Part shown: positions 50,689 through 62,867 of the stretch, piece after piece
Layout: the number at the start of each line of letters is the position of its first letter
Numbering within the stretch: position 1 is the first letter of the stretch
From: an uncultured Candidatus Bathyarchaeia archaeon
Lineage (GTDB): Archaea > Thermoproteota > Bathyarchaeia > RBG-16-48-13 > GCA-020345945
Reading direction: 5' to 3'
Length of the DNA: 64,000 nucleotides
Assembly (NCBI GenBank): GCA_964596985.1
Contig: CAZQWG010000001.1
Coordinates: 396,977-460,976, forward strand
Translations under genes and position numbers: made by a program
The notes under the pieces: model-generated
What the model was told of the DNA's origin: nothing
Databases searched by the model: none
Seen by the model: only the letters and a program-made list of their open reading frames with translations

Positions 50689-50981
50689 GAACAGGTTGAT
50701 GTCCAGGTTGATGGCTCCACAGACAACTACCTCAGACAGACAGTTACACCTCTCAAAGCCAACTCAAGCGGAACCCAAACACCGATCGAGTCTCTACTCT
50801 TCTGGAAGAACGTTGAAGAGGCTTCAGCTATTAAGATCTTGGAAAGCCCGGGATTATAATCTCTACGAGAGAAGTCTCTGAAGGAGAGAATCTTGAAGCC
50901 GGGGATACCCTGTGAGAGAACGGGAACCGAGATGAAACCAATCATATACGAATCCGAGATCATTGGAACAGAGCAGAATGA

Positions 50982-51076
50982 TGGCGGGCCCGAAGGGATT
51001 CGAACCCCCGACTTCAGGCTCCGAAGGCTTTCGCGGTGATAAACCACTGCGCCCTATCCGACTAGGCTACGGGCCC
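50982..51076 (-). tRNA. tRNA-Arg(UCG) with one 18-nt intron at non-canonical position ~29/30; CCA encoded
   Basis: Manual fold: acceptor GGGCCCG/CGGGCCC and T-arm GGGGG-TTCGAAT-CCCTT. After removing TGGTTTATCACCGCGAAA, the anticodon arm is CAGGC-CTTCGGA-GCCTG. Confidence 0.75.
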
Positions 51077-51276
51077 AACAGGTCCGTGAAATAGATAACC
51101 GATTAAAGAAGCTTCCTATAAATCCCTCCAAGAGAGAGTGAAGTCGCGGTCAAGGCGAAGGAGAAACGGGAACCCGTGGAAGGCTAGAAAGATACATATT
51201 CTTATGAGGACATCTTATGACGACATAAAGACAACACTCTTACATTTTCATGATATTAAGAGAGAAGGAAAAACAG

Positions 51277-52020
51277 ATGAGTTCTCAAACACACCTCCAC
51301 GATCTCAAGTTCAGGATGATGACCATCGATCTTCTCAGGATGGCGAAGGAACGATACACCTACCGAGAACTAGCCCAACACACAGACCTCCCAGTGACGG
51401 TCTTAAGCAGATACGTGAAAGGCCACGTATTACCGACAACGAACAGGGCTAAGAGCATATGGAACTCGTTGGAGAAACTCGTAAGCCTAGAGAACGAGTT
51501 CAGAAATAGGATAACCTTCGACGACTCCGGCTATTTTGATAATACAAGCATCGTCTGCAACATATCCCTCCTCTCGCAAGGAGCCCAACACGCCCTCTCG
51601 AAATTTGCCGGCCGTAGAATAACCAAGGTGATTACCGCGGCGGTGGACGGCGTTCCTCTGGCTACAATGATCGCAGAGGCTTTCGGGGTCAACCTGGTAC
51701 TGGCGAAGAACACGAAGGAGGTTGGAATCCACGACTTCATCGAGGAGAGCTACATCCCAAGCGGCTCAGCGGTAAGGATGGTATTGTACATACCGAAGAA
51801 AGCGATCAAGAGGGGAGACAGCGTCCTGATAGTCGACGACGTCATCAGGTCGGGAGAGACCCAGAGGGCGTTGATCAACCTAGTCGGAAAAGCCCGGGCT
51901 GAGGTAGCAGGAATCTACGCGCTGGTTGGAGTAGGGAAGAATTGGAGAGAGAAGATACCCACCCCATCCAACTGTCCTTGTGAAGTAATCCTGACCCTGC
52001 CATTGAAGAACGGGGAATAG
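51277..52020 (+). CDS. HTH + phosphoribosyltransferase-domain regulator (GfcR/PyrE-like)
   Basis: N-terminal HTH (YTYRELAQHTDLPVTVLSRYVKG) and the PRTase motif VLIVDDVIRSGET. The start is taken at ATG 51277. Confidence 0.65.
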   Translation: MSSQTHLHDLKFRMMTIDLLRMAKERYTYRELAQHTDLPVTVLSRYVKGHVLPTTNRAKSIWNSLEKLVSLENEFRNRITFDDSGYFDNTSIVCNISLLSQGAQHALSKFAGRRITKVITAAVDGVPLATMIAEAFGVNLVLAKNTKEVGIHDFIEESYIPSGSAVRMVLYIPKKAIKRGDSVLIVDDVIRSGETQRALINLVGKARAEVAGIYALVGVGKNWREKIPTPSNCPCEVILTLPLKNGE

Positions 52021-52062
52021 GCGGCCGAGAGCAGAGAAGCCAGATCCTTTGATATTCGATCT

Positions 52063-53103
52063 TCAACGTCTGGAAAACAGTCTACCTAGACTTCTCCCGA
52101 AAGGCGGGAATACTACATCGCTCTCCGTCACTATTGCAGTCACATACTGGGGCGGCGTAACATCGAAGGCAGGATTCAACGCAGGTATACCCGTAGGCGC
52201 GGTACGTATCCCGTGGAAGCCGAGAACCTCCACCTCGTCCCTCAACTCTATCTCGACATCCTTCGACTCGGTCTTCAGATCGACCGTGGAGAGCGGGGAA
52301 GCAACATAGAAAGGGATCCTATGGATGCTTGAGAGAACTGCAATCGTGTAGGTTCCAATCTTGTTGATTACAGAGCCGTCTCCAAGAACCCGGTCAGCGC
52401 CTACGATCACCTTGTCCACCATCCCCTCTGCCAACACGTATCCAACGGCGCTGTCAACAATCAGGGTGACAGGAATCCCAGCCCTCTGAAGCTCGAAGGT
52501 TGTCAACCTCGCCCCCTGTAACCTGGGTCTCGTCTCGGTTGCAATCACCCGCACCCTCTTCCCAGACTCAGCCGCCGCCTTCACGATCCCGAGCGCAGTC
52601 CCGTAGCCCACAGTGCCAAACCCCCCTGCGTTGCAGTGTGTGAGAACCGCGTCACCATCATCAAGTAGGGAAGCCCCGTTCCTACCTATCGCCAAGTTCA
52701 CTTGCAGATCTTCCTCAGCCAACCTCAGTGCGGCATCAAGCGTCATCTTCTTCAGCGTCTCGACGGTCCCCTTACCGCCTCGAACCGTGTCCAAGACACG
52801 GTCGATCGCCCAAAAAAGGTTCACAGCGGTCGGCCTAGTCGATCTCAGCCGATGCGCCGAAAGTTCCAAGTCACCTAAGAGCTCTTTCTTGGAGACCGCT
52901 TTGGAGGATAAGGCTGTAAGAGCAAGACCGAAGGCGGCAGCAACGCCTATGACCGGGGCTCCACGGATCTTCATGTTCTGAATTGCTTCGGCGATCTGGC
53001 TGGAACCCCGAAGCCTGAGCTCGACGAGCTCATGGGGAAGCCTTGACTGATCGTAGGTGACGACGACACCGTCCTCCCATCTTATCGTCCGGAAAACACT
53101 CAT
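52063..53103 (-). CDS. mtnA: methylthioribose-1-phosphate isomerase / eIF-2B alpha-beta-delta family
   Basis: N-terminal DQSRLPHE, IRGAPVIG, THCNAG, the ETRP motif and GADRV. Confidence 0.85.
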   Translation of the reverse strand: MSVFRTIRWEDGVVVTYDQSRLPHELVELRLRGSSQIAEAIQNMKIRGAPVIGVAAAFGLALTALSSKAVSKKELLGDLELSAHRLRSTRPTAVNLFWAIDRVLDTVRGGKGTVETLKKMTLDAALRLAEEDLQVNLAIGRNGASLLDDGDAVLTHCNAGGFGTVGYGTALGIVKAAAESGKRVRVIATETRPRLQGARLTTFELQRAGIPVTLIVDSAVGYVLAEGMVDKVIVGADRVLGDGSVINKIGTYTIAVLSSIHRIPFYVASPLSTVDLKTESKDVEIELRDEVEVLGFHGIRTAPTGIPALNPAFDVTPPQYVTAIVTESDVVFPPFGRSLGRLFSRR

Positions 53104-53654
53104 TCCCCCACTTCCAAGAATGCGGAAAGGATATCCTGTGAGAGATCCCGGGCAGTCTTAGCCAGTTCAGGAGTCATCTCCATCCCTAACCCAATATTCT
53201 TCGGTTGAACGCCGAGGAAAAGAACCTTAGCGCCGATCCCCGAGGTAATGTACTCGGAGAGAATCGACAGGGACAAGGCGTGTGTACTGGAGGCTGATTC
53301 AAGAATAGACTCCGAGTTGACAACACGTGTCTCGCCAGGATCCAAGCCCATCTCTGCAGCATCGATTATCAGGACGTGGCTAGGAGCCATCCTCCTAAGA
53401 GGACCGGTGAAACTCTCGGGCACGGTCTCGCAGTCGAAGAGCTCCACGTAACTTGGCACCCGCCCCTTCAAGCGATCAACTATGACCGAGCCGACAGCGT
53501 CATCTCCCCTAATCCGGCTGCCCACACCCAGCACGGCGATCTTTGTGGCCCCTCGAAGCCATCTCCTCAATTCCGGAAACACAGTCAACTCAGACTTGAG
53601 TTCTACACTACACGAATATGAAAGTGTTGGATAGGGAATGCTTATCCCCAACAC
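53100..53654 (-). CDS. hydrogenase maturation endopeptidase (HycI/HyaD family)
   Basis: IAVLGVGSRIRGDDAVG and the downstream IIDA motif. The true start is probably internal. There is a 4-nt overlap with mtnA. Confidence 0.6.
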   Translation of the reverse strand: MLGISIPYPTLSYSCSVELKSELTVFPELRRWLRGATKIAVLGVGSRIRGDDAVGSVIVDRLKGRVPSYVELFDCETVPESFTGPLRRMAPSHVLIIDAAEMGLDPGETRVVNSESILESASSTHALSLSILSEYITSGIGAKVLFLGVQPKNIGLGMEMTPELAKTARDLSQDILSAFLEVGE

Positions 53655-53736
53655 GAATCACCGGCGACGATAGCCGAAACCTACATAAAGAGAAGACATT
53701 TGGCAATAGGTTGAACCCCAAGAGGAGACATGTACA

Positions 53737-54270
53737 TTGCAGAGAGAGATAATAGAAGCCAGATACCAAGAAGACAAAGTCAACGTCTATGAGGAAGACG
53801 CCGTCAGCTTTCTCAACGAGAGGGGATACGGAGAACTCGACAAGGAAAGCCACGTTCTCACCCTAACCCCTTACGAGGTCCTATACCTTGCCCTAGACAA
53901 GAAGCTGAAGGTACTGGATTCTGACGCAGAGTCGCAACTGGGCTCCCCTGAACTCCTTGAAAAGTTCCGTCTGAAGGACCCAGAGATATGGACGAGATAC
54001 CTAGTATACCGAGACCTCAGAGACAGGGGATACGTCTTGAGAGAAGGCTTCGGGTTTGGAGTAGACTTCAGGGTATACGACAGAGGGGAATACGGGAAGA
54101 AAGCCGCCAAGTACATAGTCTTCGGAATAAACGAGGGAGGCCCTATCCCAATCAGCAGGATAGCTCAACTCTTGAACCAAGTGAAGAGCTTGAAGAGAGA
54201 ACTGATCCTAGCCGTCATAGACAGGAGAGGCGAGGTCGTCTACTACTCCGTCTTCCAAATGGTGCCATAG
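53737..54270 (+). CDS. endA: tRNA-splicing endonuclease, catalytic-type subunit (177 aa)
   Basis: YLVYRDLRDRGYVLREGFGFGVDFRVY and the C-terminal catalytic domain pattern. Confidence 0.85.
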   Translation: MQREIIEARYQEDKVNVYEEDAVSFLNERGYGELDKESHVLTLTPYEVLYLALDKKLKVLDSDAESQLGSPELLEKFRLKDPEIWTRYLVYRDLRDRGYVLREGFGFGVDFRVYDRGEYGKKAAKYIVFGINEGGPIPISRIAQLLNQVKSLKRELILAVIDRRGEVVYYSVFQMVP

Positions 54271-54272
54271 AC

Positions 54273-55127
54273 ATGAGGAAACTCTGGGGTTTCTTTGCTA
54301 TTATCAGACCAGTCAACTCCTTAATGATGGGGCTTAGCGTCCTGATAGGACAGCTGATAGCCGAGAACAGCATCCCGGTTCTCTCGACCGCTTTCCTAGG
54401 CTTCACGACAGCCTTCTCGTTCACGGCTGCAGCGATGGTGATCAACGACTACTACGATCGCGACATCGACGCGATAAATGAGCCGCAGAGACCAATCCCA
54501 AGCGGATTAATATCCCCAAATGAGGCCTTGGTCTACGCAGTCCTCCTAGAGATAGTCGGTCTTGCAGCCGCGGCCTTCACCAACCTCACCTGTCTGCTCA
54601 TAACCATCACTACGATAGTACTGTCGATCCTATACACCACAAAGGGCAAAGAGACCGGGCTTCCAGGAAACCTCATGGTCAGCGCATGCGTCTCAATGCC
54701 TTTCGTCTACGCGGGTTACCTCGTAGGAAGAGAGCCGAGTCAGCTTCTCTGGACCTTCGGATTCATGGCGTTCCTAGCAAACACTGGACGCGAAATAACC
54801 AAAGGAATAGTCGACATAGAAGGGGATAGAACCCGAAACGTTAGGACAATAGCCGTGAGCTCCGGACCCGAAAAAGCAGCATTCTCAGCTGCCCTATTCT
54901 ATCTCTCCTCAGTAGTCCTGAGTGCACTACCGGTATGGAACGGAGAGGTTTCAGCATACTACCTTCCCGTGGTTGCAATAACCGATATCGGTTTGATAGA
55001 ATCATCCTTATCACTGATCAGAAAACCGGGCAGGGAAAACGCTAGAAGAGTGAAACAACGGGTGTTAGTCTACATGCTAGTCGGAATGATAGCTTTCCTA
55101 GCAGGCAACCTTCCTGGAGAGCGATGA
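54273..55127 (+). CDS. UbiA-family prenyltransferase, digeranylgeranylglyceryl phosphate synthase-like
   Basis: NDYYDRDIDAINEPQRPIPSG and a second Asp-rich motif. It is polytopic. The start is taken at ATG 54273. Confidence 0.8.
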   Translation: MRKLWGFFAIIRPVNSLMMGLSVLIGQLIAENSIPVLSTAFLGFTTAFSFTAAAMVINDYYDRDIDAINEPQRPIPSGLISPNEALVYAVLLEIVGLAAAAFTNLTCLLITITTIVLSILYTTKGKETGLPGNLMVSACVSMPFVYAGYLVGREPSQLLWTFGFMAFLANTGREITKGIVDIEGDRTRNVRTIAVSSGPEKAAFSAALFYLSSVVLSALPVWNGEVSAYYLPVVAITDIGLIESSLSLIRKPGRENARRVKQRVLVYMLVGMIAFLAGNLPGER

Positions 55128-55128
55128 T

Positions 55129-56415
55129 ATGCCCGGATTTCAGACCCTAAGGGGAATGAGAGACTTCCTGCCAGAAGACCTCAGGAAAAGGAGACAAGTG
55201 GAGGATACGATTCGACGGCTCTTCACCCTCTACGGCTATGAGGAGATCGAAACCCCAACCGTCGAGTCAATGCAACTATTGACCGCAAAGGCAGGAGACG
55301 AGATAAGACACAGAATGTACGCCTTCAGAGACCTAGGCGACAGAGAGGTCGCTCTAAGACCCGAGATGACCGCCTCGGTTGCAAGGATGGTCGTAAACAA
55401 CCTGAGATACTCAACGAAACCGTTGAGACTAGGCTACGTATCCAACTGCTTCCGCTACGACGAACCACAAAAGGGAAGGTATAGAGAATTCTGGCAGGGA
55501 GGATACGAGCTGTTCGGGTCCTCTAGACCAGAGGCCGACGTAGAGATACTCACCATCGCCAACCAGCTAATGGGGGCTCTAGGCTTCAACAGGTATGAGA
55601 TGAAAGTAGGTCACGTGGGAATACTCAGAGGAGTCTTGGAACAGGAAGGAATCGGCGAACAAACCCAAAATAAAACTGTAGCCTTTATGGATAAGGGTGA
55701 ATACGACAATGCAATAGCCCTACTGGAACAGAATAGAATCCCAAGCGAGTGCATCGAAGTATCCAGAGAACTATTCGAAGTGAAAACAGACTCCATCACA
55801 GAGGCATTAGAAGAGGGAAGGAAGCTGCTTGAGAACTATGGGAAAGCGCTTCAATCCCTCGACAACCTAGGAAGCATCATCAGGATCTTAACAGATAGCG
55901 GATTGGATATCCCTCTGACAGTCGACCTTGGTTTCGGAAGAGGGCTGGAATACTACACAGGAATGGTCTTCGAGGTTTTTGTACCGGACCTTGATGTAGC
56001 CTTAAACGGTGGCGGCAGATACGACCGACTGATAGAAACATTCGGGGGAGAACCTACCCCTGCAGTGGGATGCGCACCTGGAATCGATCGGATCGTCCTC
56101 GCCATGGAGAAGGAGAACCTCTTCAAGAAAGAAGAGGAAACCCCCAAGATTCTAATAGTAGCCCTAGAGGACAGGCTTCACAGCAGAGCGTTGGAAGTCG
56201 CACAGAGACTAAGAAACAGAGGTTACCGTACAGAAGTCGAAGTAACGGGTAGAAAGCTGAGGAAAGCACTCTCGTTCGCGTCCAACGCGAAACACACCCA
56301 TACAGTAATAATCGGACAGAGAGAACTGTCGAGAGGTCTAGTCATCGTTAGAAATATGGCGAGAAATGAGCAGACAGAAGTCAAGATAGATGCCATCCAA
56401 GATCAAATAGTGTGA
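55129..56415 (+). CDS. hisS: histidine--tRNA ligase
   Basis: Class II motifs: RGMRDFLP, ALRPEMT, FRYDEPQKGRYREF and GGGRYD. Confidence 0.9.
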   Translation: MPGFQTLRGMRDFLPEDLRKRRQVEDTIRRLFTLYGYEEIETPTVESMQLLTAKAGDEIRHRMYAFRDLGDREVALRPEMTASVARMVVNNLRYSTKPLRLGYVSNCFRYDEPQKGRYREFWQGGYELFGSSRPEADVEILTIANQLMGALGFNRYEMKVGHVGILRGVLEQEGIGEQTQNKTVAFMDKGEYDNAIALLEQNRIPSECIEVSRELFEVKTDSITEALEEGRKLLENYGKALQSLDNLGSIIRILTDSGLDIPLTVDLGFGRGLEYYTGMVFEVFVPDLDVALNGGGRYDRLIETFGGEPTPAVGCAPGIDRIVLAMEKENLFKKEEETPKILIVALEDRLHSRALEVAQRLRNRGYRTEVEVTGRKLRKALSFASNAKHTHTVIIGQRELSRGLVIVRNMARNEQTEVKIDAIQDQIV

Positions 56416-56467
56416 AAGCCGACCTTCGTCGACCAGGACGACACCCCAAGAGAGTACGCCTTTGAGG

Positions 56468-56579
56468 TGGCGGGCCCGGTGGGATTTGAACCCACGACCT
56501 ACGACTCTCACCACGGGTTTAGGAGGCCGCCGCTTTGGATGGGCTGTACACCCCTCTATCCAGGCTGAGCCACGGGCCC
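56468..56579 (-). tRNA. tRNA-Arg(CCU) with two introns (about 21 nt in the D-arm 3' strand, 13 nt at canonical 37/38); CCA encoded
   Basis: Manual fold: acceptor GGGCCCG/CGGGCCC, T-arm GTGGG-TTCAAAT-CCCAC and anticodon arm GCGGC-CTCCTAA-GTCGT. D stem GCTC..GAGC is restored only after removing GGGTGTACAGCCCATCCAAAG. Confidence 0.8.
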
Positions 56580-56671
56580 GGTCTATACGTAGACCTATTA
56601 CATCTCCTCAAGGTCCCTATAATAAAAGTGTGGAAGACTTATCAGTGGAGAGAACATCTGCAAGATAGGTC

Positions 56672-56829
56672 GCGGGGGTTACCGAGTTAGGTCAAAGAAA
56701 ACCCCTATGGGACGAGGGGTTTGTGAAAGTGCAGGACTTAAGAACCCTATACCAAGGACCGAGTCTGGGCCAGATTGAGAGATCCTGTGGCGTAGGCCTT
56801 CGCGGGTTCGAGTCCCGCCCCCCGCACCA
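56672..56829 (+). tRNA. tRNA-Leu(UAA) with two introns (31 nt in the D-arm, 39 nt at 37/38); CCA encoded
   Basis: Acceptor GCGGGGG/CCCCCGC, anticodon arm CAGGA-CTTAAGA-TCCTG, long variable arm TGGCGTAGGCCTTC and T-arm GCGGG-TTCGAGT-CCCGC. The D-arm intron is 56698-56728 and the canonical intron 56743-56781. Confidence 0.85.
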
Positions 56830-56831
56830 TT

Positions 56832-57170
56832 TTACCCAGTAAGGCAGTTCGCGAGGTGTGGTTGAAGCACCGCCATGCCGGCCTTCATAGCCTCAGCAGC
56901 CATCAACAGCTCAGCAAGGAATACCTCGAACCTCCCGTACTTCTCGCCGATCCCCCTAATCGTCCCTATCAGCGCCCTACTGGCTTCGATCGGATCGACA
57001 CTTCCTCCATACACTCTTTCATCGCTTCCTCGACTCGGTCGGCTTCGTACGTGTCCAGCCCCCCACAGTTTCTCAAGGGGATTCATCCACTTCCTCACCT
57101 TGGCAATATCTAGCGTGCTGCAACCTTGAATATTGAGCAACGACACCGCACAGACAGCCGAGCCTCTCAA
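56832..57170 (-). pseudogene. fragment of a corrinoid-protein gene (N-terminal cap domain only), ending 3 nt from tRNA-Leu
   Basis: GEKYGRFEVFLAELLMAAEAMKAGMAVLQPHL parallels GELYDSKEYFLMELTLAGNTAAEIMDMIKPEL of 24074..24730. There is no DxHxxG Rossmann domain. Confidence 0.35.
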
Positions 57171-57189
57171 GCATCCAACAGGAGTCGGG

Positions 57190-58383
57190 CTACTTCGATC
57201 TCATACGATAAGCCAGGGAGAACGAGATCACAGCCATGCAGACTAGATGGACGAACACAAAGGCATAGAAGCCGATTCCGCCGACAAGCCAGGTCCACCC
57301 GAACCTAGGTCTGTACCGATGGTAATGGAAGAAAACCGGGAACTCAAGGTACACAGACACCTGGAGAAGCCAGTAGGGGACCCAGTATCTTCTCCTCCAG
57401 ATCTGCATCAGAAGAAACGGAGTAAACCAGGCAATGAATTGGGGGGAGAAGACCTTCGAGAAGAAAATCAGGTTCATCAAGGAGATTGCACAGCACGCCA
57501 GCAGATCCTCTCTTCGACGGCAAGGCAGTAAGAGAACAAGAGCGTAACCAAGGATTTGAAGTGCCCAGAATACTGTGAGTTCGATATCAGCCATCGGATT
57601 ACCCCACAATACCACTGAAAGCAAGCCGGGTAGACTCTGAGGTGTCTGCCTCCTAGAGAGATGATACCCGTAAGCCCCCCTGAAGAAAGAGTGGGCGTCC
57701 ACAGCCAAGAATGGAAATGTATACAAGAAACATAGGGCAACCGCGCCTGCCGCTAATGCGGCGATTGACCTGTGGCCCCGATCGTTCTTGTGCAAGAACT
57801 TTACAAACAGCGGGAGGAGAACGATGGGATACCATTTGAACATAGCCCCTGCACCGAGAAGTAGACCAGCAGAGAGACCCATCCCCCGGAACAGCAGAAA
57901 GGCCGCCAACACGGTGAGAAACGTGGGAATACAATCGTACCGACTCATCCAGGTGTAGAGAATCATAGGACTCAGATTGTATGCGAACGCGCAAGTCAGC
58001 GCCTTCCTTCTCCCGAGCAATTCTCTTCCCATCCTGAATATGAGAAGAGAAGTCAAGAGCTCTAGGGGAAGCTGCACAAGATTCAACATCAACGCAAAAA
58101 CATTCTCCTCACGGCCTGTGACGAGTGAGATCAGGATGAACAGGTAGCTTGCAGCCTGAGGGTACTCGATCGGCATGACGACATACGGGAGACGGGAAGG
58201 AGCGTCTTTTGCAATCTCGAAATACTTGTCGATATCACCGAAACTGCGAATGGCAAAGTTGAAGTCGTGAAAGAGGAAGAGCTGCCCACCACGGAGAAGA
58301 GCGAGACCCAAGAAGAACAAGCGGATCATGAGGGCGCATGCCAGGATACGGGTCTCGTCACCAAACTCTTTGATCGAAGGCAA
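57190..58383 (-). CDS. polytopic membrane glycosyltransferase-like protein (GT-C / DUF2029-like)
   Basis: 397 aa with about 10 TM segments. The assignment rests on architecture only. Confidence 0.5.
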   Translation of the reverse strand: MPSIKEFGDETRILACALMIRLFFLGLALLRGGQLFLFHDFNFAIRSFGDIDKYFEIAKDAPSRLPYVVMPIEYPQAASYLFILISLVTGREENVFALMLNLVQLPLELLTSLLIFRMGRELLGRRKALTCAFAYNLSPMILYTWMSRYDCIPTFLTVLAAFLLFRGMGLSAGLLLGAGAMFKWYPIVLLPLFVKFLHKNDRGHRSIAALAAGAVALCFLYTFPFLAVDAHSFFRGAYGYHLSRRQTPQSLPGLLSVVLWGNPMADIELTVFWALQILGYALVLLLPCRRREDLLACCAISLMNLIFFSKVFSPQFIAWFTPFLLMQIWRRRYWVPYWLLQVSVYLEFPVFFHYHRYRPRFGWTWLVGGIGFYAFVFVHLVCMAVISFSLAYRMRSK

Positions 58384-58528
58384 CCGATTCTCAACTACTG
58401 CAAGAGGACTCGAATAGGATAGCTGTATCGTACTTGCTTACGGGATTGTATACCACACACTACTGCCACCTCATTGCATAGAAAAGATTTATTTTAGGTT
58501 CACGGACAGCTGATACTGCCTCGGCAAT

Positions 58529-58664
58529 GCCTCGGTTCCGTGGAAAAACGGCGAGACAGCTCAGACTGGCCAAACACACGCGTTGGGTCAAAGCGCGACC
58601 TTGGTAAGGTCGAGATCGCGGGTTCGAAACGCCGAGAAGCGCGAACATCCCGCCCGAGGCTCCA
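58529..58664 (+). tRNA. tRNA-Thr(GGU) with three non-canonical introns (after pos 8, D-loop, T-loop) and none at 37/38; CCA encoded
   Basis: Acceptor GCCTCGG/CCGAGGC, uninterrupted anticodon arm CGACC-TTGGTAA-GGTCG, and T-arm GCGGG-TTCGA[19 nt]AT-CCCGC. Introns are about 58537-58557, 58570-58586 and 58628-58646. Confidence 0.75.
58628..58646 (+). repeat. T-loop intron copy 1 (AACGCCGAGAAGCGCGAAC) in tRNA-Thr(GGU)
   Basis: Identical 19-mer at the same T-loop position in three tRNA genes. Confidence 0.8.
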
Positions 58665-58779
58665 CACAAATGACCTCCAGACAAGGCTATGCTTCTTAAG
58701 TAAATGTGAAGATACTAATAACAAAGTCAAACGACGATATACCTCGAAGAGAAGGTATTCCGATCTCGAGGAGATACGG

Positions 58780-59505
58780 GTGCTACAAGTAACAACCCTC
58801 CAAGACCTAGTTGATTTCTTACCCTGGTTCGTTGCAGCTTGTTCCTTGGTGGCGTTGGCATTCATCGTATTCCAATCCTTTCCTCCAACAACTGCACGAA
58901 GAGTTGAGAAGCCCAAACCGAGTCTGAAGCCCCACGTGCAGACCCCTTTAAGGAATACGATAAGCGACCTGAAACTTGAAGAGGCACAAAAAGAGTTGAA
59001 TACGCTACGCATAGAGAGGGACATAGTCAGCTACGCCCTGACAACACTGTTCGAGGCTGAGGCTCAAGGAAAAATAACCGACAGGGAAAGGGACCGACTG
59101 ATCCAGAAGTACAAGGAAGACATGAGGCAGCTAGAGAAGGATATCGAAGAGAAAGAACTGGTCGTCAACCTCCACAAACTGGAAGGTATGCAGACAAACC
59201 TCCTTGAGATGTTCCAGAAACGGTTCGACGAGGTAAGCAGCCGAATAGAAGAGGTCAGATCCAGGCTTAAACTGGAAACCGAGCCCCCCCAGGGGACTCT
59301 CGTCGAGAAGCCGGGAGTGGAAGCAGAGGAAGAAGAAACAGAGCCTGATACTACAGGATTTGATACTACGGAATCCCCGGTAGAAGAAAAGCTCAAAGAG
59401 ATTCAAGAAGAAGTGATGAGGGAACTAGAGAGGCTGAAGCAGATGGAGGCTGAAGAAGGATACGATGAATTGGATCAACACGATGAAGAAGAAGGTAGCG
59501 ATTGA
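58780..59505 (+). CDS. membrane-anchored coiled-coil protein with acidic C-terminus
   Basis: The listed ORF 58540.. overlaps the tRNA. A plausible start is GTG 58780 (GGAG upstream). One TM (FLPWFVAACSLVALAFIVF) is followed by a heptad-rich region. Confidence 0.4.
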   Translation: MLQVTTLQDLVDFLPWFVAACSLVALAFIVFQSFPPTTARRVEKPKPSLKPHVQTPLRNTISDLKLEEAQKELNTLRIERDIVSYALTTLFEAEAQGKITDRERDRLIQKYKEDMRQLEKDIEEKELVVNLHKLEGMQTNLLEMFQKRFDEVSSRIEEVRSRLKLETEPPQGTLVEKPGVEAEEEETEPDTTGFDTTESPVEEKLKEIQEEVMRELERLKQMEAEEGYDELDQHDEEEGSD

Positions 59506-60157
59506 AGCAGTTCAAGAGGTCAAGAACGGATCCATTGTCGGTCTTGGAAGCGGGAGTACCGTAGCGTACGTCATCGAAGAGCTGGGCCGTAGGGTCAAAG
59601 AAGAAGAATTGGAGATCCAAGGCATCCCAACCTCCTACGAGACGATGAAACTCGCGGTACAATACGGCGTACCCCTCACAACCCTCAACGAACATCCAAA
59701 ACCAGACATGGACATAGACGGAGCAGACCAAGTCAACGGAGAACTCAACCTAGTAAAAGGTCTGGGAGGAGCCCTGACAAGAGAAAAGATCGTAGGCAAG
59801 GCGTCGAAGAGGCTCATAATAGTAGTCGACGAGAGAAAATTAACCGACAGACTAGGCGCCGACCAGGTCGTACCGATAGAGGTCATACCGATCGCCACGA
59901 CGGTCGTGACGAACGCACTACGTTCGTTCAACGGGAAAAGCACCCTCAGAAGAATAGGGAACGACGACCTCCAATTCATCACAGACAACGGAAACTTCAT
60001 ACTGGACGTAGACTTCGGGATCATAGAAAACCCGAGAGAACTAGAGAGAAAGCTACAAACCGTAACAGGCATCGTAGAGAACGGACTATTCCTAGACATG
60101 ACCCATAAAGTCTACGTGGGACACAAAGACGGTACAGTCAAGACCCTACACAAGTAA
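59483..60157 (+). CDS. rpiA: ribose-5-phosphate isomerase A
   Basis: GLGSGSTV, DGADQV and KGLGGALTREK. Confidence 0.85.
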   Translation: MKKKVAIEAVQEVKNGSIVGLGSGSTVAYVIEELGRRVKEEELEIQGIPTSYETMKLAVQYGVPLTTLNEHPKPDMDIDGADQVNGELNLVKGLGGALTREKIVGKASKRLIIVVDERKLTDRLGADQVVPIEVIPIATTVVTNALRSFNGKSTLRRIGNDDLQFITDNGNFILDVDFGIIENPRELERKLQTVTGIVENGLFLDMTHKVYVGHKDGTVKTLHK

Positions 60158-60240
60158 GAAGCAGAGGGAGCCGTTGACCTCCCGAGAGAACCGATTCTCC
60201 AGAAGACTTTAAAGAGAAGGTAAGAATTCAACAAGAATAT

Positions 60241-60403
60241 GCCGAGGAAAACTGGTGCCAGAACTCAGCAGAAATGCTGAGACCACTAAGGGGTAGCTCA
60301 GTCTGGTCATGAGCGCCGGACTCATAAGGGAATGAACCGCCTGGAGAAATCCGGAGATCCCGGGTTCGAAACGCCGAGAAGCGCGAACATCCCGGCCTCG
60401 GCA
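60241..60403 (+). tRNA. tRNA-Met/Ile2(CAU), elongator-type, with three introns (46 nt between acceptor stem and pos 8, 22 nt at 37/38, 19 nt in the T-loop)
   Basis: Acceptor GCCGAGG/CCTCGGC, D-arm GCTC..GAGC, anticodon arm CCGGA-CTCATAA-TCCGG and T-arm CCGGG-TTCGA[19]AT-CCCGG. Introns are 60248-60293, 60327-60348 and 60370-60388. CCA is not encoded. Confidence 0.8.
60370..60388 (+). repeat. T-loop intron copy 2 in tRNA-Met(CAU)
   Basis: Identical 19-mer AACGCCGAGAAGCGCGAAC. Confidence 0.8.
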
Positions 60404-60464
60404 TCCTATTCCACGCATCCTACAAACATCTTTTAAGATCCCGCCAAGTTTCAGAGATAGCACT

Positions 60465-60582
60465 GCCTCGGTGGCTCAGCTGGCAGAGCGATAGCCTTGT
60501 ACCCGACTATGAAATGGTCGGTAGGAGAGCTATTGGTCGCGGGTTCGAAACGCCGAGAAGCGCGAACATCCCGCCCGAGGCT
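60465..60582 (+). tRNA. tRNA-Thr(UGU) with two introns (26 nt at 37/38, 19 nt in the T-loop)
   Basis: Acceptor GCCTCGG/CCGAGGC, D-arm GCTC-AGCTGGCA-GAGC and anticodon arm ATAGC-CTTGTAA-GCTAT after removing 60502-60527. The T-loop intron is 60549-60567. Confidence 0.85.
60549..60567 (+). repeat. T-loop intron copy 3 in tRNA-Thr(UGU)
   Basis: Identical 19-mer AACGCCGAGAAGCGCGAAC. Confidence 0.8.
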
Positions 60583-60692
60583 CCTCTTCTTGAAGAACCG
60601 ATGCTGAGAGGCAAAAGCCTGAAGAACAAGGGAGAAAAGAAAACCTAGATATTCGAGCGAAACCCAGCTAGATAGCTGATCTTCACAGAATT

Positions 60693-60784
60693 GGGGTCGT
60701 CGGCTAGCATGGTCTAGGCTATGTGGCTTGGGCCCACGTGACCGGAGAACCTCGAACGGAGTTCAAATCTCCGCGACCCCACCA
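60693..60784 (+). tRNA. tRNA-Pro(UGG) with one 14-nt intron at the variable-loop/T-stem junction; CCA encoded
   Basis: Acceptor GGGGTCG/CGACCCC, anticodon arm TGTGG-CTTGGGC-CCACG and T-arm CGGAG-TTCAAAT-CTCCG. An extra CGGAGAACCTCGAA (60743-60756) duplicates the T-stem 5' strand. Confidence 0.8.
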
Positions 60785-60883
60785 CACAAAGAGATACAAC
60801 ATGTACGGGTACTCGAAACAAAAAGTTTTACAATTCGAAAATCCTTAGGGCATCAAGTACCGCCAGTGTTTGCGGCATCACAT

Positions 60884-60958
60884 GCCAGGATGGCTGAGCG
60901 GATAAGCGAGCGGCTGCAGACCGCTTACACGCAGGTTCAAATCCTGCTCCTGGCTCCA
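60884..60958 (+). tRNA. tRNA-Cys(GCA), intron-less; CCA encoded
   Basis: Standard 75-nt cloverleaf: GCCAGGA..AGCGG-CTGCAGA-CCGCT..GCAGG-TTCAAAT-CCTGC-TCCTGGC-T-CCA. Confidence 0.9.
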
Positions 60959-61029
60959 AGTCACTCACTCAGGTTTACAGAGGGTCACTTGAGATCAACC
61001 TAGCTCGGAAGTCGAGCATCCGTTCAGGT

Positions 61030-61320
61030 TCATACTAGGTTCATTTCACGAAAAGCCTTGACGAGTGTCTTTACATTTCTTGCCTCAAGATTCAGCGCGT
61101 ATAGAGAGATTTCACCGTAGAGCACCTTCTCCACTAGTTTTTCTTCAACAAGTATCCCAATGTTCCTGTTGATCGTTGACCTCCCAAGACCGCTTTGTCT
61201 ACCTATTTTGTAGATTGTAAGTGGCGTCGAGGATCTAGCCAATGTAAGCAGAATCTTTAACCTAGCCCGGTTGCCGAGTGCCTCTATTAGTCTCTCTTTG
61301 CTATCACGGTTTCTGGTCAA
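61030..61320 (-). CDS. ArsR-like winged-helix transcriptional regulator
   Basis: RLKILLTLARSSTPLTIYKIGRQSGLGRSTINRNIGILVEEKLV. Confidence 0.6.
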   Translation of the reverse strand: MTRNRDSKERLIEALGNRARLKILLTLARSSTPLTIYKIGRQSGLGRSTINRNIGILVEEKLVEKVLYGEISLYALNLEARNVKTLVKAFREMNLV

Positions 61321-61326
61321 GACTGA

Positions 61327-62490
61327 TCAAGGCTTCCTTAGATGATCCACGAGGACTCTTTCAAGAACATCAACCTTTATTCCGGGTAGACCAAGTTCTT
61401 CTGTGTTTTCTCCGGGGGCATCGACGATCACGGCATCCCTCAGCCTTCCGACGAATCCTTGAAATGAGACCTCCCCAACAGGTTCGAAACGATACTCCTC
61501 TGAAAGAGCAGCGTACATCTGATACACATTCGTTATTGGCACATAGACAGATTCCTTCTCCTTCTTCAATTCTCTCGCCAAGGCAAGTAGAATATGTTTC
61601 TCTGTTGGGGAGAAGGCGTATATTTCCTCAGTACGTGACTTAGGATCGACCCAGGATTGTGCTTCTCTGACAGCATCAGGCATCACATATGGTGAGCCCT
61701 CGCGTTCAGCTACAAGACCAGCCATGGTAAGCAATTCAAGGGCGTATCTCGCATCCCCACGTCCGTATTCACAGACATTCCGCACGATGAAGCCGAGTAT
61801 CTCGGAGGGGACTGCGTTCTCTCTGAATGCTTCGTCGATTCTTGCGCCGAGGATATCTCTGATCTCATGTTCCTTGTACAACGGGAACTCGACTGTCGTC
61901 TTTACAAAGGTGCTGAGTGTTGAGGAGTCGAATAGGTTCCGGAAAGAATAGTCTCTTGCTATGAGGATCAGGTGAATGCGTTGAGGAACGTCCTGTACCG
62001 AGTCTGCCAAACGCGTCAGATTGTACACTATGTCTTCTCCAGTAGATCTAATGAAGTAGTCGATCTCGTCAAGAACGAGAAGAAGATATCTATCCTTCTT
62101 GTTCAAGTAGTCCCGGAGACCTCTCAGCAACTCATCTGACCCGTACCCTCTAAGGGGCAACTCAGGCGCTGCTTTACGAATTAGGGCCTGAACTAGACTG
62201 AACCCACTAGGAGTCATCCTGCAATTCAGGTACACGAATTCAAGTTGGATTTCATTCTTCTCTGCAATCCTCTTCAGAATAGCGCCGACTCGCTTGGCGG
62301 TAACAGTCTTACCTGCACCACTTTCCCCAACGAGAAGGATCTTCCTCGACAGGACCGCCGGGGTTCTGAATGCAACCTGGAAGAACCCCACAAGCCTTTG
62401 AACGTGGTCTTCTCGATGTGGAAGACGCCTCGGGACATAACTGTAGGAGAGCTTCTCGATACCGTCCTCCCTGAATATTCTACTAGGCAC
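61327..62490 (-). CDS. cdc6: Orc1/Cdc6 replication initiator (AAA+ with C-terminal winged helix)
   Basis: YVPRRLPHRE, Walker A GESGAGKT, Walker B LVLDEID, and a C-terminal wHTH. Confidence 0.9.
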   Translation of the reverse strand: MPSRIFREDGIEKLSYSYVPRRLPHREDHVQRLVGFFQVAFRTPAVLSRKILLVGESGAGKTVTAKRVGAILKRIAEKNEIQLEFVYLNCRMTPSGFSLVQALIRKAAPELPLRGYGSDELLRGLRDYLNKKDRYLLLVLDEIDYFIRSTGEDIVYNLTRLADSVQDVPQRIHLILIARDYSFRNLFDSSTLSTFVKTTVEFPLYKEHEIRDILGARIDEAFRENAVPSEILGFIVRNVCEYGRGDARYALELLTMAGLVAEREGSPYVMPDAVREAQSWVDPKSRTEEIYAFSPTEKHILLALARELKKEKESVYVPITNVYQMYAALSEEYRFEPVGEVSFQGFVGRLRDAVIVDAPGENTEELGLPGIKVDVLERVLVDHLRKP

Positions 62491-62608
62491 TTTGCATCAC
62501 CCTATCCTGAGAGAGCCTGTGAAAAGAATTTTACTCACAGACGGGAAAAAGTGGTTGAGTGACGTGAAACTCTATATAGTGCTCAGCAGGAATATGTTTA
62601 GGTCTGAT

Positions 62609-62813
62609 GGGGGCGTAGTCTAGAGAAGAGGCGAACCCTTCTTCGGAGAACTAGGTATGACAACGGGCTCCAGAGGTCCGTGAAGAGCCATAATACGGGT
62701 ATGCTGACCAGATGGGATGAAGAACTTCCGGAGCGCGAAGAAACCCGTAGGTCGAGAACCGATAGGTTATCGACATGTCGGTCGATAGGGTTCAAGTCCC
62801 TTCGCCCCCACCA
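62609..62813 (+). tRNA. tRNA-Trp(CCA) with three introns (about 27 nt in the D-loop, 69 nt at 37/38, 32 nt in the T-stem); CCA encoded
   Basis: Acceptor GGGGGCG/CGCCCCC, anticodon arm ACGGG-CTCCAGA-CCCGT after removing 62674-62742, and T-arm GAGGG-TTCAAGT-CCCTT after removing 62755-62786. Confidence 0.8.
62674..62742 (+). ncRNA. C/D-box guide RNA embedded in the tRNA-Trp canonical intron
   Basis: C-like GTGAAGA (62680-86), D' CTGA (62704-07), C'-like ATGAAGA (62717-23) and a degenerate D (CGAA/GCGA, 62735-39). The guides are complementary to tRNA positions 38-44 and 31-37. Confidence 0.6.
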
Positions 62814-62867
62814 AAACGCTTCATTTCGAGCCTGTTTCAGGAAAAGAATAGATTTTTCAGCTCTTTT

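Follow-up and report, generated by a model that had tools for sequence, protein, structure and literature searches.

A predicted bulge-helix-bulge intron shared by the T-loops of three neighboring tRNA genes in an uncultured Bathyarchaeia archaeon

Introns with a bulge-helix-bulge (BHB) fold at position 59/60, within the T-loop, have been described in archaeal tRNA genes (Marck & Grosjean 2003 and Sugahara 2008, in the summary given by PMC4090602), and 59/60 stands on the list of non-canonical tRNA intron positions published in the same review. The intron-rich sources named are the Crenarchaeota, especially the Thermoproteales, the Nanoarchaeota, and the Thaumarchaeota (PMC4090602, PMC8450103). 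In the Thermoproteales, one intron can be shared by paralogous and non-paralogous tRNAs, according to the accounts of Fujishima 2010 in PMC4090602 and PMC4033280, and both reviews call the mechanism of this sharing unknown. Here we analyzed a 64,000-nt stretch of contig CAZQWG010000001.1 from an uncultured Candidatus Bathyarchaeia archaeon (the whole 64 kb is called the window), in which three tRNA genes, tRNA-Thr(GGU), tRNA-Met(CAU), and tRNA-Thr(UGU), carry the same 19-nt insert in their T-loops. We consider it probable, at about 0.8, that this insert is a canonical BHB intron at position 59/60, that it is ancestral, and that its copies are homogenized within genomes.

The inserts have the geometry and the T-loop position of the known 59/60 introns and, like these, occur together with introns of the canonical and of further non-canonical kinds, up to three per gene; the host here belongs to the Bathyarchaeia. 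With the introns of Fujishima 2010, as they are portrayed in the two reviews, they have in common a near-identity between tRNA genes of different isoacceptors whose nearest relatives are other genes. The difference is that the introns described here occupy one homologous position with near-identical flanks, appear to be ancestral, and evolve in concert with mosaic tracts, which points to gene conversion and not to movement into new sites. Similar introns across isoacceptors are found in both cases, whereas a lineage-specific gain was not found here. In yeast, intergenic conversion equalizes tRNA gene families, introns included (PMC4090602, section 18). There too the copies cluster within a genome, with their introns, and the cause proposed is the same as here, conversion between short, highly similar tRNA genes. 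However, yeast converts copies of the same isodecoder, while in our case only the T-arm and the intron would be converted, across isoacceptors and across the Thr/Met identity. An experimental precedent for the processing of such introns is the pre-tRNA-Thr of A. pernix, whose intron at a non-standard position is cut by EndA, the splicing endonuclease, in its (alpha-beta)2 form (Hirata et al. 2011, PMC3241643). In both systems, a BHB intron lies outside the anticodon loop of a tRNA-Thr, and the A. pernix heterotetramer cuts without other factors; the A. pernix intron is located in the D-loop and ours in the T-loop, and the enzyme is here predicted from the gene of one subunit.

The T-loop intron and its predicted fold

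The 19-mer AACGCCGAGAAGCGCGAAC is found as exact matches at 58628-58646, 60370-60388, and 60549-60567 of the window, all on the + strand, as the initial annotation had reported. No further match with up to three mismatches was found on either strand of the 64-kb window, and the expected count from 100 dinucleotide-preserving shuffles was 0, compared with the 3 copies observed. Every insert interrupts the T-loop between TTCGA and AT, and lies between the strands of the 5-bp T-stem, the flanking T-arm sequences being GGGTTCGAA and TCCC(G). When the boundaries are drawn by the BHB cleavage rule used here, i.e., by cutting after the second base of each bulge, the intron becomes ACGCCGAGAAGCGCGAACA at position 59/60 and occupies 58629-58647 in tRNA-Thr(GGU) (copy 1), 60371-60389 in tRNA-Met(CAU) (copy 2), and 60550-60568 in tRNA-Thr(UGU) (copy 3), each 19 nt long and on the + strand. 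The boundaries assigned initially lie one base to the left of these, and the mature sequence is the same for both. In public genomes, the exact 19-mer gave 60 single matches in unrelated bacteria and one haloarchaeon, which were dismissed as chance matches in GC-rich genomes.

The minimum free energy (MFE) fold and the centroid fold of the T-arm with its insert are both (((((((((...(((......)))))))...))))) for the window copies, and the same MFE structure was obtained for all 16 variants from relatives. In this structure, the outer helix is the 5-bp T-stem, and a central helix of 4 bp is formed by the T-loop UUCG (bases 54-57) and the intron CGAA. Two bulges of 3 nt each are located on opposite strands, AAA on the 5' strand and CAU on the 3' strand, and the inner helix CGC/GCG of 3 bp (3-4 bp when the relatives are included) is closed by the 6-nt loop CGAGAA. 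The flanking helices, h and h', each contain the minimum of at least two Watson-Crick pairs that belongs to the hBHBh' motif, in the form in which it is defined in a footnote of PMC7714728 and in PMC4090602. Both pairings foreseen in the initial annotation, TTCG/CGAA and CGC/GCG, are present in the MFE fold, but its description of the structure as a "relaxed" bulge-helix does not apply, as the fold is the strict motif in the window and in the relatives. By this modeling, each insert is predicted to be a canonical strict hBHBh' archaeal tRNA intron at position 59/60.

The predicted cuts in the T-arm plus insert, GCGGGUUCGAAACGCCGAGAAGCGCGAACAUCCCGC, fall after AA in the bulge AAA and after CA in the bulge CAU, and removal of the insert at these sites restores the T-loop TTCGAAT in all three genes. 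The cleavage rule was checked on the canonical 37/38 intron of tRNA-Thr(UGU), where it restores an anticodon loop of 7 nt. The gene models were built with a BHB-aware splicer, ARAGORN, and comparative alignments. On the raw DNA, neither ARAGORN nor Rfam called any of the three tRNA genes. After deletion of the 19 nt, ARAGORN called a tRNA at each site, although two of the calls were mislabelled because further introns remain, and in silico splicing of all introns resulted in clean ARAGORN cloverleafs for Thr(GGU), Met(CAU), and Thr(UGU). The BHB fold and the clean tRNAs obtained in this way support the earlier proposal of introns in these genes, and they would belong to the protein-spliced class of archaea.

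The three genes lie within 2 kb. The exact block common to the two Thr genes is 48 nt long; Met is 88% identical over these 48 nt and shares a 34-nt exact core with the block of both Thr genes. The stems of the Met gene had initially been described as different, and for the T-stem this holds at a single base pair, 49:65. Duplication, which had been proposed for the two Thr genes, is not a sufficient account of them: apart from the 48-nt block that they share, the genes differ, and so do their other introns (8/9 and ~22/23 in Thr(GGU), 37/38 in Thr(UGU)).

Conservation and concerted evolution in related genomes

Syntenic loci were collected through homologues of rpiA, the gene located between the tRNA genes, and their contigs were labelled L062 and onward. 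The rpiA identity was 83% for L062 and L063, 79% for L064, L065, and L066, 77% for L067, 74% for L076, 73% for L077, and 71% for L075. The rpiA relatives at 60-64% identity (L068-L070, L078) have lost the synteny and were set aside as uninformative. A metagenome scan with the stems fixed to the window version gave no matches, and a looser pattern scan gave four, namely the strain variants L072 and L073, which were added to the set, and two tRNA-Ala(UGC) genes of an unrelated archaeon. The named relatives of rpiA are exclusively Candidatus Bathyarchaeia, so the host is an uncultured member of this group and not of the Thermoproteales, for which the initial annotation had cited intron transposition. 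The contig to which the window belongs has a length of 467 kb, and the DNA of the window is also present in the SRR14802573 assembly.

The 59/60 intron is present in every T-arm of these genes that lies on a relative's contig, and no intron-less orthologue with its T-arm was seen on these contigs. Because the same site in the same genes is occupied in all related lineages examined, the comparison indicates that the intron is ancestral to this Bathyarchaeia clade. In comparisons from genome to genome, divergence is 0-2.7% in the exons and 10-26% in the introns, among them the T-loop intron, and we therefore regard the genes as functional and the parts called introns as free to drift. TTCGAA and T, which the model places in the exon, are invariant, while the bases that it places in the intron vary. 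The length of the T-loop intron ranges from 16 to 19 nt, its inner helix occurs as CGC/GCG, CGCC/GGCG, CGTC/GACG, CACC/GGTG, and CAT/ATG, and the intron strand of the central helix reads CGAA, CGGA, or CGAG, each of which pairs with the fixed exon UUCG. When the 15 distinct variants were aligned, BHB pairing was found in 96.9% of the cells, as against 29-57% with slid partners, four BHB pairs were changed on both sides, and the covariation score was reached by 0 of 500 shuffles. Compensatory changes have kept the BHB intact in the course of evolution.

The copies within a genome resemble each other more closely than they resemble their orthologues. All three genes carry ACGCCGAGAAGCGCGAACA in the window, and all three carry CCGCCGAGAGGCGCGGAAA in L067. 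In L076, where Thr(GGU) lies off the contig, ACGTCAAGAGACGCGAATA is found in both Met and Thr(UGU), as is ACGGAGACAGCGCGAAAA in L077, where no Thr(GGU) gene was found upstream. The copies of L064 have the loop AAGGAA in all three genes, followed by a 3' part that reads CGAA-TA in Thr(GGU) and Thr(UGU) and CGGA-CA in Met. In L062, the loop and the 3' part are TAAGAA and CGGA-TA in Thr(GGU), CAAGAA and CGGA-CA in Met, and TAAGAA and CGAA-TA in Thr(UGU). L075 has ACACCATAAGGTGCGAGAA in Thr(GGU) and ACATGAAATGCGGAAA in Thr(UGU), the 3' half of Met being absent. On average, 0.83 differences separated the introns of different genes in one genome, as against 4.17 for orthologues in different genomes, and by parsimony a tree arranged by genome needs 12 steps versus 27 for a tree arranged by gene (orthology). 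In a permutation of within-genome similarity, only the observed labelling of 576 was as extreme (1/576). For Met versus Thr(UGU), which could be compared in six genomes, 4/6 pairs were identical and 1/720 permutations was as extreme.

The copies in L062 and L064 look like mosaics, with loop blocks grouped by genome and 3' blocks grouped by gene. Met of L064 keeps CGGA-CA, as does Met of L062, despite the loop AAGGAA that it has in common with the other two genes of its own genome. Within the L062 population (L062, L063, L072, L073), the loop and 3' blocks reassort, and the gene-specific 49:65 pair, which adjoins the intron, is never overwritten. On the evidence of these alignments, we read the within-genome identity as concerted evolution and not as fresh transposition. 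Short-tract gene conversion at the DNA level is most likely the homogenizing process; we favor conversion because of the pattern across genomes, and the mosaic copies together with the intact 49:65 pair suggest short DNA tracts with ends that lie within the intron or at its border, and not an RNA-mediated replacement of the whole intron.

The Met gene has an unusual form in two of the relatives. In L065 (4270-4450, JGI 3300009373), Met and Thr(UGU) are fused: a 5' part from Met runs through the shared T-arm and intron into a 3' part from Thr(UGU), and about 180 bp are deleted, while both genes are intact in its sister contigs L064 and L066. Either the assembler collapsed the repeat, or the chimera is a recombinant that is really present in the population. 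In L075 (4795-4907, JGI 3300041077), Met has the conserved 5' part, the 3/4 intron, the D-arm, the anticodon arm, and the 37/38 intron, but the gene breaks off behind the anticodon stem and lacks a T-arm. Possible readings are a decaying copy or a split tRNA gene with its 3' half elsewhere.

Origin of the identical copies

The locus had initially been presented as a clean local example of the gain and transposition of tRNA introns. An identical intron across isoacceptors is indeed found, but the same site is occupied in the relatives, the intron appears to be ancestral, and the copies evolve in concert. If transposition were recent, one copy would have been newly inserted in the other two genes, or have replaced their introns whole, lineage by lineage. 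This would have happened at the RNA level, with endonuclease and ligase reversing the splicing reaction before reverse transcription and recombination, or by a mobility mechanism of its own, in the way suggested for the Thermoproteales. Such events would explain the exact three-way identity in the window and the identical copies in L067, L076, and L077, and similar introns in different isoacceptors have earlier been read in this way (PMC4090602, PMC4033280). However, position and genes are the same in every relative, and no new site has been colonized. Breakpoints inside the 19 nt, as the mosaic copies appear to have, are not predicted by replacement of the whole intron, and with flanks that are nearly identical plain homologous conversion suffices. 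In the vicinity of the genes, we noticed neither a reverse transcriptase nor any signature of a mobile element, and the viral contigs that were scanned for the intron gave 0 matches. Taken together, we find recent transposition unlikely. For an origin of the intron from the att site of a mobile element, according to the model of PMC3293823, there was no support, the 0 viral matches being weak negative evidence.

That the copies change together within a genome could also be the result of selection for identity, if a sequence-specific function that requires uniform copies, co-evolving with a partner in trans, resided in the pre-tRNA T-arm or in the intron after excision, whether as a linear or a circular molecule. 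Excised archaeal introns are reported in PMC3326292 to persist as circular RNAs. Between lineages, however, the intron varies freely in its loop, in its helix (with compensation), and in its length of 16-19 nt, and the copies are non-identical in L062, L064, and L075. The Thr introns of L075 differ in both length and sequence, and therefore identity is not required for function. No complementary target was found in the window with up to three mismatches. To our knowledge, 19 nt is also too short for the known guide-RNA architectures, and we hold selection for identity to be very unlikely. Finally, the genes could be pseudogenes or assembly artefacts from which the insert is never removed, as the standard tRNA finders miss them and the L065 contig shows a Met/Thr chimera across the repeat. 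Both possibilities are argued against by an exon constraint that is about tenfold stronger than that of the introns, by mature products that are perfect cloverleafs, by the compensatory evolution of the BHB, and by the recurrence of the same arrangement in independent ENA, JGI, and Logan assemblies. Moreover, a sequencing read is longer than the repeat, which measures at most 48 nt. We regard artefacts or pseudogenes as an extremely improbable explanation.

Several observations weigh against the homogenization of an ancestral, spliced intron. Only a few sites underlie the mosaics of L062 and L064, where parallel mutation is possible, and about eight variable sites carry the whole signal of concerted evolution. 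Homogenization is not universal, as the two Thr introns of L075 are 19 and 16 nt long. The splicing of the inserts is itself deduced from the predicted structure; we infer the cleavage and ligation step because the enzyme family is known to work in this way, and neither a catalytic alpha subunit nor a ligase was found in the 64-kb window.

If the homogenization reading is correct, the T-stem would serve in the pre-tRNA as the outer helix, with the UUCG of bases 54-57 and the CGAA of the intron forming the central helix. Each bulge would be cut by the splicing endonuclease behind its second base, and the joining of the exons by a ligase would restore the T-loop UUCGAAU. The intron would have been present in all three genes of the common ancestor of the clade, and its sequence would since have drifted freely while the BHB was kept. 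Its copies would have been homogenized repeatedly by short-tract conversion between the nearly identical T-arms (34-48 nt of identity) of genes lying within 2 kb. Carried further, intron "transposition" in archaea, at least in the conserved arms, would be short-tract gene conversion seeded by the near-universal T-arm, with whole and partial tracts in this clade that pass from Thr into Met genes and leave the adjacent identity pair untouched. We put this extension forward tentatively, and consider it rather doubtful.

The endonuclease in this scheme is probably an (alpha-beta)2 heterotetramer, with one subunit encoded in the window. An EndA-family protein of 177 aa is encoded at 53737-54270 (+ strand; PF01974 at 88 bits, PF02778, and TIGR00324 at 81.5 bits with a cut-off of 59.6). 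In alignment with the M. jannaschii enzyme (1a79), Tyr115 is kept, while His125 is replaced by Ala and Lys156 by Arg. The catalytic His is also lost in all twenty aligned EndA homologues of Bathyarchaeia and Nitrososphaeria, which suggests that a non-catalytic EndA subunit is conserved in these groups. The protein encoded in the window probably acts as the structural, beta-type partner in the enzyme responsible for cutting the introns described here. The (alpha-beta)2 endonuclease is the broad-specificity type of the TACK archaea (PMC3241643, PMC7714728), and it is reported in PMC3241643, PMC5829648, and PMC7714728 to cut introns outside the anticodon loop. The epsilon2 type is likewise counted among the endonucleases able to cut there.

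Other introns, neighboring genes, and implications

The tRNA-Thr(GGU) gene (58529-58661, + strand) is 133 nt long and contains three introns, giving a mature tRNA of 75 nt; its exons are invariant in the relatives, and a genomic CCA follows directly on its 3' side (58662-58664). The 21-nt intron at 8/9 (58537-58557, +), found by the strict BHB search, has the central helix CTCG/CGAG, the bulges GTT and ACA, and the inner helix CCGT/ACGG, and folding of the region shows the central helix, a bulge, and the inner helix. This intron varies among the relatives while the exons are fixed. The 18-nt intron at about 22/23 (58574-58591, +), at the junction of D-loop and D-stem, was placed by compensatory change, its central helix GGCC/GGTC being GGCT/AGCC in L067. 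Folding of both variants recovers the central helix, and the mature tRNA has a normal D-arm; the boundaries, which lie within flanking AAA runs, are tentative. An alternative 22-nt D-loop intron with the helix GACT/GGTC and a perfect D-stem was rejected, as it leaves a D-loop of 6 nt and its helix breaks in L067.

The tRNA-Met(CAU) gene (60257-60403, +) has a mature length of 76 nt as called by ARAGORN after splicing. ARAGORN identifies it as elongator Met, although it may alternatively be a tRNA-Ile2. Its 5' end is tentatively modeled at GCC 60257, the alternative 5' exon being GCCGAGG at 60241-60247. A tentative 30-nt intron at 3/4 (60260-60289, +) resulted from the relaxed BHB search, with the central helix GGTG/CACT and the inner hairpin CTCAGC/GCTGAG. 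In the relatives, CACC or CGCC is found and the pairing with GGTG is kept, but the MFE fold does not give the BHB. This model was the sole BHB-compatible solution found for the 5' insert of Met; with GCCGAGG (60241) as exon 1, a canonical BHB was sought and none was found. The canonical 37/38 intron of Met is 22 nt long (60327-60348, +) and highly variable in the relatives. The tRNA-Thr(UGU) gene (60465-60582, +; 118 nt, two introns, 73 nt mature) was modeled with the strict BHB splicer and ARAGORN, and its canonical 37/38 intron (60502-60527, +, 26 nt) has a fold z of -4.98.

A TATA-like box is located about 30 nt upstream of each gene on the + strand: TTTATTTTA at 58488-58496 for Thr(GGU), CTTTAAAG at 60207-60214 for Met, and CTTTTAAG at 60430-60437 for Thr(UGU). 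Two of the genes are also preceded by a copy of the 5' acceptor strand. GCCTCGG (58518-58524) lies 4 nt upstream of the 5' end of Thr(GGU), and GCCGAGG (60241-60247), a perfect complement of the 3' acceptor strand of Met, lies 10 nt upstream of the modeled Met 5' end. Both leader copies are invariant in all relatives, while the adjacent spacer varies, and both are located where the TATA-like boxes predict the start of transcription. Thr(UGU) has no leader copy and no intron near its acceptor strand. The leader copies could be surrogate strands for pairing or footprints left when an intron was gained, and the Met copy could be the true exon 1. More speculatively, they may bind the 3' acceptor strand for as long as a BHB occupies the true 5' strand.

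The three genes belong to a tRNA-rich stretch (50940-62830) that holds no fewer than nine tRNA genes in 12 kb, of which standard finders miss the majority. In the whole window, only tRNA-Cys (60884-60955) reaches the Rfam threshold, and ARAGORN sees three tRNAs. Further multi-intron genes lie at about 56470-56580 (- strand), at 56672-56830 (+, about 160 nt), and at 62609-62815 (+, about 207 nt, probably with at least three introns); for the long genes at 56.7 kb and 62.7 kb, the relaxed BHB search gave many spurious solutions. The ARAGORN "tRNA-Ile(tat)" at 50982-51076 (-) is a mis-call: without the 18-nt BHB-like intron TGGTTTATCACCGCGAAA, it becomes a 77-nt tRNA-Arg(UCG), CCA included. In tRNA-Pro(UGG) (60693-60784), the Rfam alignment shows a 15-nt insert in the variable region (60740-60754), a stretch that differs in every relative, as expected for a non-canonical intron. 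The open reading frame at 58780-59505 (+), between tRNA-Thr(GGU) and rpiA, encodes an N-terminal hydrophobic segment followed by a charged, coiled-coil-like protein; it had no Pfam match, and its position is conserved in all relatives.

The two tRNA-Ala(UGC) genes retrieved by the looser metagenome scan (L071, 6030-6125; L074, 3440-3535) have an 18-nt BHB intron, TCGCATCGCGCGCGAAAA, at 59/60. They belong to an unrelated archaeon of higher GC content, in which a neighboring protein has its nearest named relatives in Aenigmarchaeota at about 45% identity. Their intron probably arose independently, and we do not treat it as homologous because the search pattern and the pairing with UUCG force most of the resemblance.

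The type of intron, its position, genes with multiple introns, and the sharing between isoacceptors have already been described (PMC4090602, PMC4033280, PMC8450103). A limited literature search found no paper on such introns in Bathyarchaeia, and within that search the Bathyarchaeia host, the very high intron load, and a homogenization between Thr and Met that can be traced through diverging lineages appear to be new. With eight introns in three genes, the heavy tRNA intron load is extended to Bathyarchaeia. The tRNA complements of such metagenome-assembled genomes are badly under-called by ARAGORN and Rfam, which affects inferences on completeness and codon usage. The locus and its relatives form a compact natural experiment on how tRNA introns multiply in archaea, in which a single intron family can be followed at a single position through three genes, two amino-acid identities, and about seven lineages. 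Whole as well as partial homogenization is visible, which supports a homology-driven process at the level of DNA. The finding would not surprise a specialist, but it provides concrete and testable evidence on how such introns spread and are maintained.

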